Shown one piece after another: positions 28,457 through 59,776 of a stretch of DNA of 64,000 nt. The notes beneath the pieces were generated by a model that had not been told where the DNA came from, made no database searches, and saw only the letters and a list, made by a program, of their open reading frames with translations. Positions within the stretch are counted from its first letter, which is position 1. Every line of letters begins with the position of its first letter. The DNA comes from a bacterium (lineage in GTDB: Bacteria; UBA8248). The stretch is taken from positions 3,712,001 to 3,776,000 of the forward strand of contig OZ244799.1 of the NCBI GenBank assembly GCA_965219955.1, given 5' to 3'. The position numbers were made by a program, and so were the translations under genes.

Positions 28457-29350
28457 ATGCCACCGATCACGAAAGTAGACGGGGACGTCTATTACCCCGG
28501 CAGCAGGACGCGCATCGACGCCATGCGTCCGGCCGACCCGGCGAAAACGCCCTGGACGCCGCTGCCCAAGCCGCTCTCCGAATGCAAGGTCACCCTCGTC
28601 TCCACGGCGGGAATCTTCATGAAAGGAGACGTTTCCTTCGACTACGAGCGCGAGTGGCGCGAGCCGCACTGGGGCGACCCCACCCACCGCGAGATTCCGA
28701 AAACGGCCGCGCAGGACGACTGCGAATACTCGCACCTGCACATCAACACCGAGTACCTGGAACGGGACAGGAACGTGTCGTTCCCCGTCGATATCTTCCT
28801 GGACTACGAGCGCGAGGGGAAGATCGGCGCGCTCGCCGAGACGCTCTACTCCACGATGGGCTACACGCCCAACTTCCATCCCCTGCTGAAGAAGACGGCC
28901 CCCCTCATGGCCGAGAAGATGCACGCGGAGGACGTGGACGCGGCGTTTCTCATCCCCGTCTGACCGCTCTGCATGCGGTCCGTGAGCCTGCTGCAGAGAA
29001 GACTGGAAGAGTTGGGAATCGCCACCGTCTCGATATGCAACCAGCCCGTGGTGTCGGAGAAAGTCTGCGTGCCGAGGGCGGTCTTCATCCAGTATCCCTT
29101 CGGGCGCATGCTGGGGGACGTGGGCGACAGAATTGGCCAGCGCGCGGTGTGCGACGACATGTGCGCGCATCTCGAGGCGGCCGGGGGACCGAACGCCTAT
29201 AAGCATCTATCCCACGAGTGGCCCGAGCCGCCCGAGGAAACGCAGTGGCATCCTCTCACGCCCGCGCCCATGCACGTGCTTCGCAACAACGGCACGGCGC
29301 CCAAGGGCCTCGCGCACTACCAGGACGACGAACGGCCCGATTTGACTTGA
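28457..29350 (+). CDS. GrdB/PrdB-like (glycine/sarcosine/betaine/proline reductase selenoprotein B family) selenoprotein; Sec at TGA 28961-28963
   Basis: Track ORFs 28457-28963 and 28973-29350 are in one frame. Read-through gives VDAAFLIPV-U-PLCMRSVSLLQRRLEELGIATVSI (UxxC). PWTPLPKPLSECKVTLVSTAG, GDPTHREIP, DRNVSFP and YPFGR are family motifs. Confidence 0.88.
28967..28998 (+). promoter_or_regulatory. Putative bacterial SECIS hairpin
   Basis: CTCTGCA(28967-73)...TGCAGAG(28992-98) lower stem; bulged upper stem with a CGT apical loop 17 nt after the TGA. Confidence 0.65.
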
Positions 29351-52124: not shown

Positions 52125-53219
52125 ATGCCGCAGACGACGCAGATGGTGGACCAGGAAGTTGATTTGGTGGAGTACTACTACGAGCAGGGTTTCTCGGACG
52201 GGCTTCCCGTCGTCCCGCCCACGCCCGAGAAGATAGACGCCGCCGTCTCGGCCCTGGGCGGCGATAAAGACTACATCGAGTGCCGCGTGCCGCCTCGCTG
52301 GGGCAACCTCACGAGAGAGGTTCTGGCGATCAACATGGTGATGGCGGGCTGCAAGGCGGAGTACGCGCCCGTCGTCCGCGCGGCGATGCTCGCGCTTTGC
52401 GACCCCCACTTCAACCTGAACGGCGTGCAGGCCACCACCCACATGGCGTGCCCGCTCATCGTGGTGAACGGGCCGGTTCGCGGCGAGATCGGCATGAACG
52501 CGGGCTGCAACGTGTTCGGCTCGGGCAACCGCGCGAACGCGACGATAGGCCGCGCGGTGCGGATGATGCTCCTGAACGCCGGCGGCGCGTGGCCGGGCGA
52601 CTTGGACAAGAGCACCCTGGGCTGCCCCACGAAATACACCTACTGCATCGCCGAGAACGAAGAGGCCAGCCCCTGGGCGCCCTACCACGTGGAACAGGGC
52701 TACGCGCCCGAGGATTCCACGGTCTTCGCTATCGCCGCCGAGGCGCCCCACAGCGTGACGAACCACATCTCGGATGATCCCGAGGGCATCCTCGACAGCA
52801 TCTGCTCGGCGATGAGCACCATCGCGCATAACAATTCTGTGAGCAGCGGCTCGTGCGCCGTCGTCATCAGCCCCGAGCACGGGGCGACCATCAGCGCGAA
52901 GAACTGGACGCGAAACGACGTGAAGAGCTATCTGTGGATGCACACAAAGAACACGTTCGCCGATATCTCGTTCAACCACCGCTACGGGAAGGTCTACAAC
53001 CGCAACATCCCCAAGTGGTACAGGCGGGAGCCTGACGAGAGAATCCCCATCGTTCCCAGTCCCGAGAACATCCACCTGTTCGTGGCGGGGGGGGAGGCGG
53101 GCCGTTTTTCGGCTTTCATTCCCGGCTGGGGCCACATGACGAACCCGGTGCTGCGCGCAATCGACGGAAGAGCGCTCGAAGGCGGCCCCGTCTGCGTGGA
53201 CGGCACCTGTCTGCTATAG
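52125..53219 (+). CDS. Conserved hypothetical protein (DGLPVVPPT family), usual partner of UGSC selenoproteins
   Basis: GFSDGLPVVPPT, AINMVMAGC, VQATTH, NRANATIGRA, IAENEEASPW; C-terminal CVDGTC. Confidence 0.75.
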   Translation: MPQTTQMVDQEVDLVEYYYEQGFSDGLPVVPPTPEKIDAAVSALGGDKDYIECRVPPRWGNLTREVLAINMVMAGCKAEYAPVVRAAMLALCDPHFNLNGVQATTHMACPLIVVNGPVRGEIGMNAGCNVFGSGNRANATIGRAVRMMLLNAGGAWPGDLDKSTLGCPTKYTYCIAENEEASPWAPYHVEQGYAPEDSTVFAIAAEAPHSVTNHISDDPEGILDSICSAMSTIAHNNSVSSGSCAVVISPEHGATISAKNWTRNDVKSYLWMHTKNTFADISFNHRYGKVYNRNIPKWYRREPDERIPIVPSPENIHLFVAGGEAGRFSAFIPGWGHMTNPVLRAIDGRALEGGPVCVDGTCLL

Positions 53220-53247
53220 CGTTTGGAATAGAAACCAGGAGGAAACC

Positions 53248-53790
53248 ATGAGTGACGTCATGACCGGCCAGGTCGTCTACGACCCCAGAGGGGTGGTCGA
53301 GGCCGAGGCGCAACCCACCGCAGAGCGCGTCCGGAATTTGAAGGGTCTCAAACTCGGGGTCCTGGACAACACGAAGTGGAACGGGCGCAGGCTGCTCGAA
53401 AAAACCACGGCGCTGATGGAGGCGGAAGGCCCCTTCGCCGAAGTGCATTACTACAAGAAAGAGAGCTTTTCCAAGAACGCGGCGCCTGAACTGATCGCCC
53501 GGATCGCGGAGGAGAACGACGTCGTCCTGACGGCGATTGGCGACTGAGGCTCCTGCACCTCGTGCTGTATGCACGATGCGGTCTCCCTGGAAGAAAAAGG
53601 GGTGCCCACCGCCGTGGTGGTGACGGAGGTTTTCCTGCACGAAGCCCACGTGCAAAGGGCGGCACTGGGGATGAACGACCTCGACCCCGTGGTTATCCAA
53701 CACCCCCTGAGCACGCTCTCGGATGAGGAAATCTCCGCGCGCGCGGGCGATGCGGCTCGCCAGGCGGTGAAGATTCTGCTCGAAGGCTAG
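53248..53790 (+). CDS. UGSC-family selenoprotein; Sec at TGA 53545-53547
   Basis: Track ORFs 53248-53547 and 53569-53790 are in one frame. Read-through gives LTAIGD-U-GSCTSCCMHDAVSLEEKGVPT. Confidence 0.9.
53555..53581 (+). promoter_or_regulatory. Putative bacterial SECIS hairpin
   Basis: TCGTGC(53560-65)-TGTAT-GCACGA(53571-76) stem-loop, extendable by CTGCA/TGCGG. The loop begins 18 nt after the TGA and contains GU. Confidence 0.65.
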
Positions 53791-53801
53791 TCCGGCTTTT
53801 C

Positions 53802-55034
53802 ATGACGAAGCCATTAGAAGGCATCCGCGTCCTCGACCTGACGCAGTTTCTCTCAGGCCCGCAGGCCACGCTTTTTCTGGCGGGGCTGGGGGCCGAGGTC
53901 ATCCGGATCGACAATCCGGCCACGGGCGACCCGGTGGCCTATTCTCCTCCCTATATCGGCGAGAAGGGCGTCTCCTACCATCCCCAGACGGATGAGGACC
54001 TGGGAATGGCCTACTTGAAGCGCACGCGCGCGAAAAAGGCGATTACCCTGAACATCAAGGACCCCCGGGGTCTCGAGATGTTCTACGGGCTCGTCGATCG
54101 CTCCGACATCCTGGTGGAGAATTTCTCCGTCGGCGTCACGAAAAGGCTTAAAGTTGACTACGAGACGCTTCACGCGCGGAAACCCTCCCTGGTCTACTGC
54201 TCCATCACGGGCTACGGCCAGACGGGGCCGGATGCGGGCCTCAAGGGCTATGACGCCGTCTCACAGGCGGCTTCCGGCCTCATGAACCTCACGGGCTTTC
54301 CCGACGGCCCGCCCACCAAGGCGGGCTCCGCGCTCGGCGACAGCGTGGGCGGCACGTTCGCCTTCGGCGCCATCATGACGGCGCTCTTTCACCGCGAGCG
54401 CACCGGGGAGGGCCAGCAGGTCGACATCTCGATGATCGACTGCATCTTCTCGCTGATCTTCGATGAGCCGATGGATTTTTACGAACAGCTGGGCCTCCCG
54501 CCGCGCATCGGCAACCGCATCATGCGGCTCGCCCCGTTCAACGCCTATGAGACGAAAGACGGCTGGGTCATCATCGCCTCGGGCACCAACGCGCACTGGC
54601 ACAACATCCTGCGCGGCATCGAGCGCCCCGAATTGATCGGCGATGAGCGTTACGAGGACATGAGCCGGCGCGTGAGCAGAGTCGCGGAAGTCGACGCCAT
54701 CATCACCGAATGGACGAAGCGCCGCGAGGCGAAAGAAGCGGTCTCTTCCCTGCGCGCGCACGACGTCATCTGCGGGCCGGTGAATAATATCCACGACATC
54801 CTCGCCTGGCCCCACATGCAGGAACGCGGGATGATAGTCGACATCGAACACCCCACCCTCGGAACGCTCAAGAACGCGAAAGCCCCGGGCTTTCCCTTCA
54901 AGTTCAGTGAAATAAAAGGCGGCTACGCCGCCCCCGCTCCGCTCGTGGGCCAGCACAACGCGGAGATCCTCGGCGGTCTTCTCGGCGTATCGGACGCGGA
55001 ATTGAAAGAGCTGGCGGATGAGGGTGTGGTCTAG
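53802..55034 (+). CDS. Class III CoA-transferase (CaiB/BaiF family)
   Basis: PLEGIRVLDLTQFLSGP, LVENF, SITGYGQTGP, GYDAVSQAASG, GEGQQVDISM. Confidence 0.93.
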   Translation: MTKPLEGIRVLDLTQFLSGPQATLFLAGLGAEVIRIDNPATGDPVAYSPPYIGEKGVSYHPQTDEDLGMAYLKRTRAKKAITLNIKDPRGLEMFYGLVDRSDILVENFSVGVTKRLKVDYETLHARKPSLVYCSITGYGQTGPDAGLKGYDAVSQAASGLMNLTGFPDGPPTKAGSALGDSVGGTFAFGAIMTALFHRERTGEGQQVDISMIDCIFSLIFDEPMDFYEQLGLPPRIGNRIMRLAPFNAYETKDGWVIIASGTNAHWHNILRGIERPELIGDERYEDMSRRVSRVAEVDAIITEWTKRREAKEAVSSLRAHDVICGPVNNIHDILAWPHMQERGMIVDIEHPTLGTLKNAKAPGFPFKFSEIKGGYAAPAPLVGQHNAEILGGLLGVSDAELKELADEGVV

Positions 55035-55070
55035 GGGGGCATGAAGAGCGGAGCCTTCGGGTGTTCAGCC

Positions 55071-55862
55071 ATGCGGCATTTTATCTTTCTACTGGTGCCG
55101 GTTTGTTTTCTCTTATCGGGCTGCGCCGCCGGGGTCGACCCCAAGACGCTCGACTTGGCCGATGAGGCGAGCCGCACCTTCGACGCCGCCTACGTCATGC
55201 TCGGGGCAGAGGGCGCGCTCATCGAAGGCAGGATGAGCGACGATTTCGTTCAGCGAAAACTCGCGAGCCTCAAGAAAAAACGCCCCACCGTCGTTTTCGC
55301 GCACGGCTGCACCGGGCTGGGCCGGGGAAACTTGCGCTATATGCGGCTTCTGGCGCGGGCGGGATACGCCGTCATCGCGCCCGACAGCTTCGCCCGCCGC
55401 TATCGTCCCGAAACCTGCGATCCTTCCCGGCGCCGAGGCATAAAGGGAGCGCCGCACCGGCGGGTGGGCCGAATGCGGCAGGAGGAGATCCATCACGCGG
55501 CGTACCGCGTCCGGCGCATTCGGTGGGTGGACCGGAAAAACCTCTTCCTGATGGGACACAGCCAGGGCGGCACCGCGGTCGCCGCTTACGAAGGGGATGG
55601 GTTCAAGGCCCACGTCATCAGTGGTTCCGTATGCTGGCGCGGCGTTCGGTCGCCAAACGGGACGCCCATCCTGGCCTTGTACTCAGAAGACGACCCCTGG
55701 CGGCGGGGCAGGCCTGCCGATTCTTGCCTGCGAAAGGCCAGGGCGCGGGGTGTGAGCATGGCGTTTCATCTCTTCGAGGGCCGGGCGCACAATCTCTCGC
55801 GCAACGAGCAGGCGCGGCGGCTGATTCTCGATTTTCTGAACCGGCACCGCAGAACGGAATAA
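55071..55862 (+). CDS. Dienelactone hydrolase-family lipoprotein
   Basis: Lipobox LSGC; HGCTG; PDSFAR; GHSQGG. Confidence 0.8.
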   Translation: MRHFIFLLVPVCFLLSGCAAGVDPKTLDLADEASRTFDAAYVMLGAEGALIEGRMSDDFVQRKLASLKKKRPTVVFAHGCTGLGRGNLRYMRLLARAGYAVIAPDSFARRYRPETCDPSRRRGIKGAPHRRVGRMRQEEIHHAAYRVRRIRWVDRKNLFLMGHSQGGTAVAAYEGDGFKAHVISGSVCWRGVRSPNGTPILALYSEDDPWRRGRPADSCLRKARARGVSMAFHLFEGRAHNLSRNEQARRLILDFLNRHRRTE

Positions 55863-56001: not shown

Positions 56002-56988
56002 ATGCGAATCTGCACTTTCAGCCTGGCGGGCGAGGCGCGCATCGGCGTGTTGTTCGGGGAGAAAATCGCCGATCTCAAGCTGGCCTACGCCCTGTCGCTC
56101 GATGAGGAAACAGCGGCGGAGGCGATGGATCGCGTCGAGGCCGAGGTCCCCGATGATTGCGAGGAGTTCATCGAGGACCTGGAGCTGAACCGTCCTCTCG
56201 CCGAGGAAGCTATTGAGGCGCTCGAAGCGCACGGGAGCAAAAAGGACCCGGTTCGCTTCGACGGCATGCAGGTCGTCTATGAGCACGGTGAAGTCGAGAT
56301 TCTTCCCCCCGTCGTGCCGGACACGCTGTTTTGCATGGCGAGGAACTATGTGGCCCACGCCGCCGAGATGGCGCGCACCGAAGTGGATGATTTCAAGGAA
56401 GAGCTCCCGCTCTACTGTTTCCTGAAGCCCGCCACGTGCGTGAGCGGCCCGTATGAGGACGTGCCCGTCTATCCCTCGATGGAAAAGCTCGATTATGAAC
56501 TCGAACTCGGCGTGCTCATCGGACAGGGCGGCAAGAATATCCCCGTGGACAGGGCCATGGACCACGTGGGCGGCTACACCCTGTTCAACGACATGAGCGA
56601 CCGCACGAGCCTCAACATGGGAAAGTTCATCGACTGGTACGCCATGAAGGCGCCCGACGGCTTCGCCCCCATCGGCCCCTGTATCCTGCTTCCCGAGGAG
56701 GGCCTCGACCCCCACGATTTGAGACTCAAGCTCTGGGTGAACGGCGAACTGAGGCAGGACGCCACCACGGGCGACATGGTCTGGCGGGTCGCCGAGCAGG
56801 TATCGTATCTGTCGGGGATAGCGACCTTGCGGACGGGTGACATCATCGGCACCGGCTCTCCCGCCGGCAACGCCGCCTCGTGGGGGGAATATCTCCAGCC
56901 GGGCGACCTGATAGAGGGCGAAATCGAGGGCATCGGGCGCCAGGCCTTTCGGATCAGGAGCGAAAACCCCGAATATACGCCGGGCTAG
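56002..56988 (+). CDS. Fumarylacetoacetate hydrolase family protein
   Basis: RNYVAH, FLKP, LDYELELGVLIG, FNDMSDR, GDIIGTGSPAG. Confidence 0.92.
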   Translation: MRICTFSLAGEARIGVLFGEKIADLKLAYALSLDEETAAEAMDRVEAEVPDDCEEFIEDLELNRPLAEEAIEALEAHGSKKDPVRFDGMQVVYEHGEVEILPPVVPDTLFCMARNYVAHAAEMARTEVDDFKEELPLYCFLKPATCVSGPYEDVPVYPSMEKLDYELELGVLIGQGGKNIPVDRAMDHVGGYTLFNDMSDRTSLNMGKFIDWYAMKAPDGFAPIGPCILLPEEGLDPHDLRLKLWVNGELRQDATTGDMVWRVAEQVSYLSGIATLRTGDIIGTGSPAGNAASWGEYLQPGDLIEGEIEGIGRQAFRIRSENPEYTPG

Positions 56989-57082
56989 TTCTCCCGGCGG
57001 TTGATTCGCACCCGTTTGCGCATTAAGATTTTCGCATCGATCAATGGAATTCCGAATTGCTGAAACCCGAGAGGGGACCCTC

Positions 57083-58450
57083 ATGAATCCAGCCATAGCC
57101 GAAGCCGAATCCCTGCGGACGATGGACAAGGAACACGTCTGGCATCCGCTCATGAACCATTCCGGGATGGAGGAGAATCCCCTCGACGTCGTGGTCAAGG
57201 CCAAAGGCTCGACCATCCAGGACGCCTCCGGCAGGGAATACATCGACGCCATGGCGGGACTCTGGTGCGTGAACATCGGCTACGGGCGCGACGAGGTGGC
57301 CAAGGCGGCGTACGAGCAGATGCTTGAGCTGGCCTACTATCCGCTGACGCAGGTGAATCCCCCCGCGGCCAGGCTCGCCGAGCGGCTGGCGTCCCTGCTG
57401 CCCGAGGGGGTCGAGCGCGTCTGGTTCGTGAACTCGGGTTCTGAAGCCGTGGACACGGCCATCAAGCTGGCCCGCGCCTATGGCCGCCTGAACGGCGGGC
57501 GGCGGTACAAGATCATCGCCCGCCACCAGGGCTATCACGGGGCGACCATCGGAGGCGCCAGCCTCACCGGCCAGACGCTCCGGCGCGCGATGTTCGAGCC
57601 GCTTCTGCCGGGCGTGATTCACGTGAGCGCGCCCTATTTCTACCGAAGCAACGCGGACACCGAGGAAGAACTCGCGCGGCGGTGCGCGGACGAGTTGGAT
57701 GAGGTCATCCGCTACGAAGACCCCGAGACCGTGGCGGCGTTCATCGCGGAGCCCGTCATCGGCGGCGGGGGGGTGATTCCCCCGCCCGCGGATTATTTGA
57801 AGCGCATGCGCGAGGTGTGCCGGAACCACGGCGTGCTGTTCATCGCCGATGAGGTCATCACCGGCTTCGGGCGCACGGGGGAACTCTTCGCCTCCGATCT
57901 GTACGAGATCGAGCCGGACATCATGACGATGGCCAAGGGGCTGAGCAGCGCCTATCTGCCCATCGGGGCGACGGCGACCACGAACGAGATATTCGAAGCC
58001 CTGAACGCCGAGGGAGACTCGGGCTTTCTGCAGATAAACACCTACGGCGGACACCCCGTCGCCTGCGCGGCGTCGCTCAAGAACCTCGAGATCATGATGG
58101 AAGAGGAGTTGCCCGCGCGCGGCGCCAAGGTGGGCGCATATCTCGGCGGGCTTTTGGGGAAACTCTCCGACATCCCCTGCGTGGGCGACGTGCGGGGCGT
58201 GGGCCTCATCTGGGGGGTGGAGTTGATAGAAGAGAGCGGCGCGCCGCTGTCCACGGCGGCCACGGCGAAGGTGCTGGCCTACGCGAAGGAGCAAGGCGTG
58301 ATCTTCGGCAAGAACGCAGGCATCGCCGCCGGCCCTTCGAACACCGTCACCCTCAGCCCGCCGCTGGTCTTGACCGAAGAAGAAGCCGAGCGCGCCGCCT
58401 CCGCTCTCGACACCGCATTGCGCCGCGTCCAGGCTGAGAGCGGCGCCTGA
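57083..58450 (+). CDS. Class III PLP aminotransferase (omega-amino acid/diamine type)
   Basis: GLWCVNIGYG, SGSEA, YHG, FIADEVITGFGRTG, MAKGLSSAYLP, TYGGHP. Confidence 0.93.
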   Translation: MNPAIAEAESLRTMDKEHVWHPLMNHSGMEENPLDVVVKAKGSTIQDASGREYIDAMAGLWCVNIGYGRDEVAKAAYEQMLELAYYPLTQVNPPAARLAERLASLLPEGVERVWFVNSGSEAVDTAIKLARAYGRLNGGRRYKIIARHQGYHGATIGGASLTGQTLRRAMFEPLLPGVIHVSAPYFYRSNADTEEELARRCADELDEVIRYEDPETVAAFIAEPVIGGGGVIPPPADYLKRMREVCRNHGVLFIADEVITGFGRTGELFASDLYEIEPDIMTMAKGLSSAYLPIGATATTNEIFEALNAEGDSGFLQINTYGGHPVACAASLKNLEIMMEEELPARGAKVGAYLGGLLGKLSDIPCVGDVRGVGLIWGVELIEESGAPLSTAATAKVLAYAKEQGVIFGKNAGIAAGPSNTVTLSPPLVLTEEEAERAASALDTALRRVQAESGA

Positions 58451-58498: not shown

Positions 58499-59161
58499 AT
58501 GTCCAACATCACCATGCTCGACATCGAGGATCTGAAGAAGACGAAACTCGCTCCTTTCCTCAACAAGGCGCTCAAGCACCGCGCGCCCGACCCCGCCTTT
58601 CACGCCATGCAGGGCCACAACGAGGATCTGGCGAAGTCGATGTACCTCGCCTGGGGCACGGTGTTCAACACCGGCGTGATCGATCACAAGCTCAAGGAGA
58701 TCATCCGCGTCCAGCTCTCGCGCCGCGCCTTTTGCAACTACTGAGGGAACGTGCGCTCTGCTTCGGCGAAGCAGGCCGGCTTGACGGAAGAGATGATAGA
58801 CGAGGGCATCGACAACTGGCGCGAGAGCGAGCTTTTCACCGAGGCCGAAAAGCTGGCGCTCGAATACAGCGAACTCATGGATTCCGAGCCCGAGAAGATC
58901 GACAAGGCCTTCTACGCGAGGCTGCGCGAGCACTACTCGGATGAGGAAATCGTGGAGCTCGGCTCCTTCATCGGCTTCAACGTGGGCTACCACACCTTTT
59001 TCAGAACGCTCGATTTCTACCCCATGTTCACCCCCGACGGCAGGCTGGTGAGCCAGGAGGAATCGCGCCGCATCTACGGCGATTGCCCCGTATCGCACAT
59101 GAGCGGCCCGCTCGAACGCGCGATCGCAGAGGGCGAGGCGCAACGGGCAAACGGAAGTTAG
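58499..59161 (+). CDS. AhpD/carboxymuconolactone decarboxylase-like selenoprotein; Sec at TGA 58742-58744 (CxxU)
   Basis: Track ORFs 58499-58744 and 58751-59161 are in one frame. Read-through gives KLKEIIRVQLSRRAF-CNYU-GNVRS, and the product aligns end to end with the downstream paralog. Confidence 0.88.
58755..58776 (+). promoter_or_regulatory. Putative bacterial SECIS hairpin
   Basis: CTGCTTC(58758-64)-GGC-GAAGCAG(58768-74) perfect stem; G-initiated loop 20 nt after the TGA. Confidence 0.65.
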
Positions 59162-59170
59162 GAGGGGACC

Positions 59171-59776
59171 ATGCCGATTATCGATCCGCTCGAACCCGAA
59201 GCGATTGAAGAGAAGAACTGGAAGCGCGTCATGGAGCGCACTGCCGAGACCCACGCGCCCGATGCGCTCTTCTCGCGCATCATGGCCCATGCGCCCGGCT
59301 ACGCCGACGCCCTGCACGACGCGATGCACCGCTCCCACGCCATGGGCGGGGTGGACCACAAGCTCAAGGAGATGGTCCGCATCCAGCTCGCCAGGACCGC
59401 GCAAGACACCTACTTCGCGAACCTTCGCTCCGAGCAGGCGAAAAAAGAGGGCCTGACGGAAGAACGCATCGAGGCCGCCTGCGGGGATTTCGAGAACGAC
59501 CCGCAGTTCACCGAAGCCGAGAAGTGGGCGCTCCGGTTTTCCTACTGGATGTACCGCGACGCCGCGAGGCTCGACAAGGATTTCTACGACGAGGGCAAGA
59601 AGCACTTCACCGAAGCCCAGATCATGGAGATCGGCGCGATGGTGGCGCTTCACTACGGCCTCCAGGTCTTCATGCGCACGCTCAAGGCCTATCCGCTCCA
59701 CGATCCGGAGGGAAACCCGGTGACGCAGGCGCAGTCCGAGCAGATTTACGGGAAAGACGTGCCCCTGCCTTCTTGA
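59171..59776 (+). CDS. AhpD/CMD-family paralog lacking the redox motif
   Basis: DHKLKEMVRIQLARTAQ-DTYF-ANLRS; FTEAEKWAL; HFTEAQIMEIG. Confidence 0.85.
   Translation: MPIIDPLEPEAIEEKNWKRVMERTAETHAPDALFSRIMAHAPGYADALHDAMHRSHAMGGVDHKLKEMVRIQLARTAQDTYFANLRSEQAKKEGLTEERIEAACGDFENDPQFTEAEKWALRFSYWMYRDAARLDKDFYDEGKKHFTEAQIMEIGAMVALHYGLQVFMRTLKAYPLHDPEGNPVTQAQSEQIYGKDVPLPS

Follow-up and report, generated by a model that had tools for sequence, protein, structure and literature searches.

A UGSC-family selenoprotein and its Unknown_1 partner P2: probable parts of one redox unit

What does a selenoprotein of the UGSC family do, and with which partner does it do it? The question is raised by positions 52,125 to 55,862 of a 64,000-nucleotide stretch of bacterial DNA (GenBank assembly GCA_965219955.1, contig OZ244799.1, positions 3,712,001 to 3,776,000 of the forward strand), called here the window. 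An earlier sequence-only reading of the window had seen an operon in which a UGSC protein follows a protein with a DGLPVVPPT motif, and had proposed that these two form a two-subunit thiol/selenol reductase acting on a CoA-activated substrate. UGSC itself is, of course, not new. It is an abundant selenoprotein for which the relevant passages of four papers (PMC2398784, PMC13188914, PMC1976440, PMC9312934) give no function, in line with that reading, and a 2026 review still places it among the largely uncharacterised families (PMC13188914). The answer argued here, from gene context and sequence comparison, is that UGSC and its partner very probably act as one functional redox unit.

Four open reading frames lie in the region, all on the + strand, with 28, 11 and 6 nucleotides between them, which bears out the tight, co-directional spacing claimed for them. 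The first two genes carry the argument.

52125..53219, + strand: P2, 364 amino acids, Unknown_1 family; an open reading frame with DGLPVVPPT at residues 25-33 and the C-terminus ...CVDGTCLL
53248..53790, + strand: UGSC-family selenoprotein, 180 amino acids, with U100-G-S-C103-T-S-C106-C107; above the cut-offs of PF24696 and NF041046
53545..53547, + strand: in-frame TGA read as selenocysteine U100; paralogs share the TGA and the genome has the machinery for selenocysteine
53560..53576, + strand: hairpin resembling a selenocysteine insertion sequence (SECIS-like), with a 6-base-pair stem UCGUGC/GCACGA and the loop UGUAU; it starts 15 nucleotides after the U of the UGA

The dense U-G-S-C-T-S-C-C cluster of the selenoprotein, here U100 to C107, and the CVDGTC ending of P2 are both as the sequence-only reading had described them. 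P2 is presumed to be the substrate-binding or catalytic subunit.

Is the TGA truly read as selenocysteine (Sec)? The Pfam UGSC profile PF24696 matches residues 10-178 (E 2.1e-58, 197.7 bits against a cut-off of 25). Because this match runs across the TGA, the codon is not there by chance. The NCBIfam profile NF041046 likewise gives 157.7 bits against a cut-off of 125, and at the level of these two families the window's protein shows no difference from other members. The same genome encodes tRNA-Sec, SelA and SelB, and it holds eight UGSC genes, each with one in-frame TGA, in the same column in all eight. Within the phylum, UGSC is present in 43 of 51 genomes, and one TGA stands in every one of the 150 matches listed (89 more fall outside those listed). 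A hairpin 15 nucleotides after the U of the UGA is common to all eight paralogs in a consensus alignment, with compensatory changes in its stem (UGC..GCA against UGG..CCA, and CG..CG against CA..UG). Folded singly, the hairpin of the window is not exceptional (z -1.10), and an Rfam search of the window returned zero matches. The Sec codon in the window is real, and the protein is a full member of the UGSC family.

How closely, then, is UGSC tied to P2? A scan of species genomes gave 598 P2-encoding stretches, and the locus counts given here and below use the best 80 of these. The sequence-only reading had suggested neighbourhood statistics for the pair. These show UGSC on the same strand as P2 in 65 of the 80 loci, adjoining it within 300 nucleotides in 62 and standing 563-698 nucleotides away in three. 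Both gene orders occur, with P2 first in 40 of the paired loci and UGSC first in 25. The genome of the window repeats this pattern; seven of its eight UGSC genes lie within 190 nucleotides of a P2 paralog, in either order, and the eighth is separated by 4.4 kb, including an insertion sequence transposase, from a tandem row of four P2 genes. Among genomes of the same class or order, all five that hold UGSC also hold P2, beside UGSC in each, and a search for P2 in five that lack UGSC found it in none. By their record labels, the carriers are Nitrospinota-like, Alphaproteobacteria, Burkholderiales, Dehalococcoidia, Actinomycetota and Acidobacteriota, together with Methylomirabilota, Binatia, Poribacteria, a Robertmurraya and a Nitrosocosmicus.

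Transposases recur at these clusters. The same DDE_Tnp_1_4 transposase, with an identical Pfam score (E 2e-152), stands beside three different P2 clusters:

L022:9076-10506: DDE_Tnp_1_4 copy, by Pfam, between a UGSC gene and four tandem P2 genes; the gap also has an open reading frame with a molybdopterin-binding domain
L029:12317-13747: DDE_Tnp_1_4 copy, by Pfam
L030:13612-15042: DDE_Tnp_1_4 copy, by Pfam

The two proteins are also found as one. One of the seven close pairs in the genome of the window is a natural fused frame (G000:C1:4065209-4066795; L027:8033-9694, - strand) that reads from a UGSC domain through the TGA directly into P2, with another P2 paralog behind it. Among 150 P2 representatives listed in a domain scan, 65 are longer than 400 amino acids, and 41 of these long representatives carry UGSC or a TGA-truncated piece of it. 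The full UGSC domain is at the N-terminus in 15 of the 65; the part after the Sec stands there alone in 22, as expected from gene callers that stop at a TGA; and the part before the Sec is at the C-terminus of P2 in four. No named domain was found in 17, six of them about 710-740 amino acids long with two or three P2 matches.

Such a fusion has been on record since 2008, when Zhang and Gladyshev noted in PLoS Genet (PMC2398784) a fusion of UGSC with Unknown_1, and a conserved cysteine. The block AVNxVMAGCxPEYxP...NGP of their Figure S1A corresponds to residues 68-117 of P2; P2 is therefore Unknown_1. The near-obligate pairing, the size of the family, its fold and its fusions to thioredoxin-like, ferredoxin-thioredoxin reductase (FTR) and thioredoxin reductase (TrxR) domains go beyond the relevant passages of that paper.

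Those last fusions are what suggest that the unit is a redox unit. Five of the 65 long representatives carry an AhpC-TSA/Redoxin domain with a CxxC or CxxS/T motif, one has a thioredoxin-reductase-like domain (Pyr_redox_2, motif CAVCD), and two carry FeThRed_B, one of these two being among the 22 with a post-Sec UGSC piece. The representative P0198 is a triple fusion, with a UGSC piece, P2 and FeThRed_B in one chain. Further, four thioredoxin-like-P2 fusions occur among the 92 P2 copies examined in the loci. UGSC lies downstream of three of them, twice within 400 nucleotides and once at 698, and the fourth has no UGSC within 3.3 kb of downstream sequence. Since UGSC is retained by these fusions, the thioredoxin-like domain adds to UGSC rather than substituting for it. 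This fits a relay.

The near-constant adjacency or fusion of P2 and UGSC, taken together with the fusions of P2 to disulfide-reducing modules, therefore indicates that the pair is probably one redox enzyme. Of the two-subunit thiol/selenol reductase proposed earlier, the single unit stands (62 of 80 loci adjacent, fused frames, co-presence or co-absence in ten of ten genomes), and the redox fusions speak for its chemistry; the part that concerned the substrate has modest support. The likely source of electrons for the pair would be thioredoxin, thioredoxin reductase or FTR.

What kind of protein is P2? The family is very large (4,877 representative clusters at 50% identity, at E<=1e-3), and the genome of the window holds 15 paralogs with 32-45% identity. 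P2 has zero matches in Pfam and NCBIfam at E<=0.1, and its profile has zero matches among PDB sequences at E<=10. Conservation in the family is concentrated in a few places. Near-invariant are the motifs D25-GLPxxPPT33, A74-G-C76, G116-P117 and R136-ANATIGRA144, as well as C174, E177, P183-W184 and G322-G323; invariant are D25, G75, G142, R143, E177 and G322. The conserved cysteines are C76 (77 of 80) and C174 (72 of 80), and no others.

An AF2 model of P2 (pLDDT 94.4, pTM 0.93) was compared with known structures. Foldseek placed class I fumarate hydratase first (E 5e-4, TM 0.25), followed by cyanuric acid hydrolases. VIA-align gave a best Z of 6.3, and for class I fumarate hydratase a Z of 5.0 over 195 aligned residues with a root-mean-square deviation of 5.5 Å. 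A TM of 0.25 and a Z of 5-6 are at the level of background, and P2 has no clear solved relative; a search of the ESM Atlas returned unnamed clusters only. With no Pfam match and two conserved cysteines, P2 does not group by sequence with the class I (Fe-S) fumarate hydratases. An Fe-S site in P2 was considered and rejected, since a site of the fumarate-hydratase type needs three cysteines. Naming P2, a very large family with no model or solved relative, would improve annotation in many phyla.

The tail of P2 is a more local matter. The sequence-only reading had made its CxxxxC an electron shuttle. The tail hairpin C357-x-D-G-x-C362 is indeed kept in 118 of 120 close P2 orthologs. It is found in 18 of 81 P2 copies of other genomes, however, all 18 within the ortholog group L031-L048, and is missing from the other 63 and from all 14 other P2 paralogs of the genome. 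Confined in this way to one ortholog group, it cannot be a family-wide shuttle.

A different feature appears near the C-terminus of a stand-alone P2 paralog of the genome (G000:C1:2356179-2357234; L030:7019-8110), where the match crosses a TGA (...YDAV-TGA-LGGSGG...). A P2 match with one TGA also occurs in a genome of the same genus (G023:C1:383043-384068). The TGA in the stand-alone tail could be Sec, or simply a stop codon.

UGSC, for its part, is conserved most strongly around the Sec. Near-invariant in 50 UGSC sequences are D99, U100, G101, S102 and C103, and elsewhere P13, K43, K71, D110, E115, G118, P120, F129, H152 and P153. The second and third cysteines after the Sec vary across the family. 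The motif that follows the Sec tracks gene order, being UGSCT[ST]C[CS] when P2 comes first and UGSCTSWS when UGSC comes first.

The model of UGSC (pLDDT 91.8) is built from five parallel beta-alpha units and places the Sec at the N-terminus of helix 101-116; the fold predicted from it is flavodoxin/Rossmann-like. This differs from the thioredoxin-like fold guessed for UGSC in a passage of PMC2398784. Structure searches returned generic matches to domains of the flavodoxin, CheY, RpiB and Rossmann-like kinds (180 chains at Z>=8, the highest Z being 11.2); they picked out no single specific family, and thioredoxin was absent among the rows shown. UGSC has no thioredoxin-type Pfam match, and a sequence search of the PDB gave chance-level matches only (best E 0.13).

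From these parts a mechanism can be proposed. Electrons from NAD(P)H or ferredoxin would enter a thioredoxin-reductase or FTR-type module, and a CxxC thioredoxin-like domain would sometimes relay them onward to a U100/C103 selenenylsulfide in UGSC. UGSC would then pass them to a putative active site in P2 (C76 and C174 with D25, R143 and E177), which would use them to reduce a small organic substrate. In the ortholog group of the window, the CxDGxC tail of P2 and C106/C107 of UGSC may form an extra thiol relay. This whole chain, which would make P2 and UGSC a thioredoxin-linked two-part selenol/thiol oxidoreductase, deserves less trust than the redox unit itself, and is judged about equally likely to be right or wrong. 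Comparative sequence evidence suggests, rather than establishes, the direction of the electrons, a role for C76 and C174 in catalysis, and a substrate in the form of a CoA thioester.

The proposed chain has something in common with reductases of the MsrA/B, ArsC and PAPS reductase types, namely two conserved cysteines and a coupling, here through fusion, to thioredoxin-like, TrxR-like or FTR-B modules. It differs from them in that P2 has an unrelated, unsolved fold and the chain gains an extra selenoprotein dedicated to it. With a defined partner protein, the function of UGSC can be tested directly, and the neighbours of the pair suggest candidate classes of substrate.

What might the substrate be at this locus? 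The gene that follows UGSC is the first place to look.

53802..55034, + strand: family III CoA-transferase, 410 amino acids; PF02515 with E 1.6e-114 and 383.3 bits over profile positions 1-366 of 366

Its assignment to CoA-transferase family III, made earlier from the letters, thus holds over the full length of the profile. An identity with CaiB does not, as the L-carnitine CoA-transferase model NF002914 gives 123.1 bits against a cut-off of 413. The protein falls below all NCBIfam equivalog cut-offs (best 285 against 750 bits), and the nearest of these models are dicarboxylate CoA-transferases. A CoA-transferase stands within 40 nucleotides after UGSC in six of the 80 loci. The copy in L031 shares 84% identity with that of the window, those in L046 and L048 share about 50%, and those in L034, L042 and L057 share 30-33%. 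The transferase gene is probably accessory within this ortholog group.

Other genes point in a similar direction. Pfam tallies cover 235 of 374 flanking genes called by a codon-usage gene caller. Acyl-CoA genes lead among the 96 that flank the ortholog loci, with six acyl-CoA dehydrogenases (ACAD), five CoA_transf_3, two enoyl-CoA hydratases (ECH) and two MaoC; the next 139 are mixed, the most frequent being luciferase-like (6 of 139). Paralog loci in the genome include the arrangements CoAT3-ECH-UGSC-P2, ACAD-ACAD-UGSC-P2 and UGSC-ECH, and others have peptidase S15, peptide transporters, amidohydrolases, or a 2-oxoacid dehydrogenase with an HpcH lyase. The CoA-activated substrate proposed earlier thus gains modest support, from the adjoining transferase and the recurrence of ACAD and ECH. 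That the substrate here is a carboxylic acid, handled as its CoA thioester by the downstream CoA-transferase, is accordingly offered as a tentative suggestion, on the doubtful side.

Several observations weigh against the picture drawn so far. Fifteen of the 80 loci have no nearby UGSC (11 with 2 kb or more of sequence on each side, four with little flank), and three of the 15 P2 paralogs in the genome have none within 10 kb; an adjacent UGSC is therefore not essential for P2 to work. The neighbouring genomes are, of course, kin, so that the pairing counts overstate independence. The link to CoA chemistry is a weak one. A homolog of the CoA-transferase lies within 6 kb in 12 of the 80 loci, and the genome holds 18 copies of family III CoA-transferases, so that finding two of its 11 P2 clusters near one is about what chance gives, although direct adjacency is not. 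Many loci have unrelated neighbours (luciferase-like, SDR, DAO, peptidase S15, transporters). Last, Sec dominates over cysteine at the motif, by 55 to 2 in 57 scorable loci (eight more are unscorable) and by 255 to 21 in the Global Ocean Sampling data (PMC2398784, Table 2). This would be odd for a plain disulfide carrier. Natural cysteine forms do exist in cultured strains, one example being locus L038, labelled Parapusillimonas granuli LMG 24012; locus L042 also has a cysteine form. A further cultured carrier of the pair is L091, labelled Robertmurraya sp. 2P01SA.

A strong preference for Sec is therefore better matched by a catalytic selenol than by a plain disulfide carrier. It keeps open a bolder reading, by analogy with the glycine and proline reductases, in which the UGSC selenol would itself be catalytic.

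Glycine, sarcosine, betaine and D-proline reductases combine a Sec subunit with a larger, substrate-binding subunit and are fed by the thioredoxin system. They are known from Stickland-fermenting anaerobes. UGSC might then be a miniature GrdB or PrdB, with P2 in the place of GrdE or PrdA. The UGSC selenol would attack the substrate that P2 holds and cleave a C-N or C-X bond reductively, after which thioredoxin would re-reduce the selenenylsulfide. The likeness to the GrdB/F/H-GrdE and PrdB-PrdA pairs lies in the Sec subunit with its larger partner, and in a weak echo of sequence at the Sec, where NCBIfam profiles for PrdB (E 0.005), GrdB (0.02) and GrdF (0.086) give matches centred on that residue. 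The preference for Sec and the ties of the pair to thioredoxin-reductase and thioredoxin modules agree with such a scheme, as does a class III aminotransferase gene that follows the CoA-transferase directly in L031 and stands 2 kb downstream here.

Those profile scores are, however, far below their cut-offs (TIGR04483 16.3 against 300 bits, TIGR01917 13.8 against 602). The Pfam GRDB profile PF07355 has no match to UGSC at E<=0.1, and hhalign of 50 UGSC sequences against sets of 1, 12 and 22 GRDB sequences of the lineage gave a probability below 1%. On these scores a homology between UGSC and GrdB/PrdB is unproven, and it was rejected. P2, in turn, has no match to the GrdE/PrdA families in Pfam or NCBIfam at E<=0.1, and nothing in it points to a pyruvoyl group. 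The variation of the second and third cysteines after the Sec also speaks against the comparison, and the hosts here, which are labelled Nitrospinota-like, Alphaproteobacteria, Dehalococcoidia and sponge-associated, are not those Stickland-fermenting anaerobes. A Stickland-type enzyme is thus unlikely, if the best placed of the alternatives.

GRDB-like genes do occur in this genome in their own right. One lies in the window at 28457-28963 (+ strand), encoding a 168-amino-acid protein that matches just the C-terminal third of GRDB (PF07355 positions 218-344, E 3.2e-11), with no in-frame stop. Elsewhere in the genome are two more short GRDB-like genes and a full-length one without an in-frame TGA (G000:C1:1275837-1276874).

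A related proposal is that P2 and UGSC are a new class of selenoenzyme, of unsolved fold, that is driven by thioredoxin and corresponds, in bacteria that do not ferment, to the Stickland reductases. This is improbable on present evidence. If true, the UGSC selenol would cleave a C-N, C-S or C-X bond in a substrate held by P2, that substrate being at this locus a CoA thioester, and the 15 paralogs per genome would represent a substrate-diversified family that degrades organic compounds in sponge-associated and soil bacteria.

The thioredoxin-linked redox unit must also be weighed against the view that P2 does no redox chemistry at all. Here, P2 might, for example, convert acyl-CoA or organic acids as a hydro-lyase or isomerase, and UGSC would only maintain, activate or regulate it, keeping a catalytic cysteine of P2 reduced. 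Among solved chains, after all, only the class I fumarate hydratases can be aligned with P2 over some 190-200 residues; the C-terminal subdomain of P2 resembles YjgF or chorismate-mutase-like domains in VIA-align; and enoyl-CoA hydratases, an HpcH lyase and LarA-like genes are among the neighbours. As noted above, however, the structural scores are those of background, and two conserved cysteines are too few for the three-cysteine Fe-S site of a fumarate hydratase. Further, fusion to a complete thioredoxin-reductase-like or FTR-B domain suggests a stoichiometric flow of electrons rather than an occasional repair. A non-redox P2 is accordingly given a small probability, below that of the Stickland-type enzyme. 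An antioxidant or peroxide-detoxifying pair, in effect a selenium-using peroxiredoxin-like system, might be read from the five AhpC-TSA/Redoxin fusions and an AhpD-like CxxU selenoprotein candidate 2.7 kb downstream, but is very unlikely, as the CxxC or CxxS/T motifs of the fused domains are of the thiol-disulfide oxidoreductase kind, and 15 diverged paralogs in catabolic and transporter contexts are unlike a housekeeping antioxidant.

The fourth gene had been counted by the sequence-only reading as a member of the operon.

55041..55862, + strand: dienelactone-hydrolase-like alpha/beta hydrolase, 273 amino acids; PF01738 with 37.2 bits against a cut-off of 21

The protein is a weak member of that family; its translation has a lipoprotein-type signal (LLSGC) and a GHSQG motif, and the hydrolase activity is predicted. 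Its membership does not survive comparison. A search of the 80 loci for this hydrolase and for the fumarylacetoacetate hydrolase (FAH) gene behind it found neither in any of them. The closest relative, L031 (88% identity), has no hydrolase, and its CoA-transferase gene is followed directly by a class III aminotransferase. In one DNA contig of run X18, from a related strain, position 55060 runs on to 55921 with 35 other letters in place of the hydrolase gene, while contigs of X5 and X6 keep the stretch. By codon usage the gene scores a low 31, whereas its neighbours score 146-162. The hydrolase gene varies between strains and is a local addition, outside the conserved unit.

Behind the cluster, at 56002-58450 of the window, lie an FAH-family gene and a class III aminotransferase. 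Given the gene order in L031, the hydrolase and FAH genes look inserted into an older row of P2, UGSC, CoA-transferase and aminotransferase.

Is the cluster found, and used, in nature? Sponge, coral and marine metagenomes contain the stretch, and two other studies have DNA contigs that cover all of it at 97-98% identity. A scan for promoters and terminators around the operon gave nothing usable. Contigs from one sponge RNA library, about 91% alike, bridge the P2/UGSC and the UGSC/CoA-transferase junctions. At that level of likeness they come from a relative, and DNA carry-over is possible; they are a weak hint of expression in that relative. Cover in the RNA run stops at about 54,700, and the lack of it beyond this point is not evidence of absence.

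Last, the window has a second candidate selenoprotein, 2.7 kb downstream of the cluster, at 58499-59161 (+ strand) with a TGA at 58742-58744. Joining two open reading frames of the same frame gives a CMD/AhpD-like protein of 220 amino acids with a C-N-Y-U motif (PF02627, E 6.5e-7). Next to it, at 59171-59776, comes a paralog that lacks the TGA, and both are conserved in L031.

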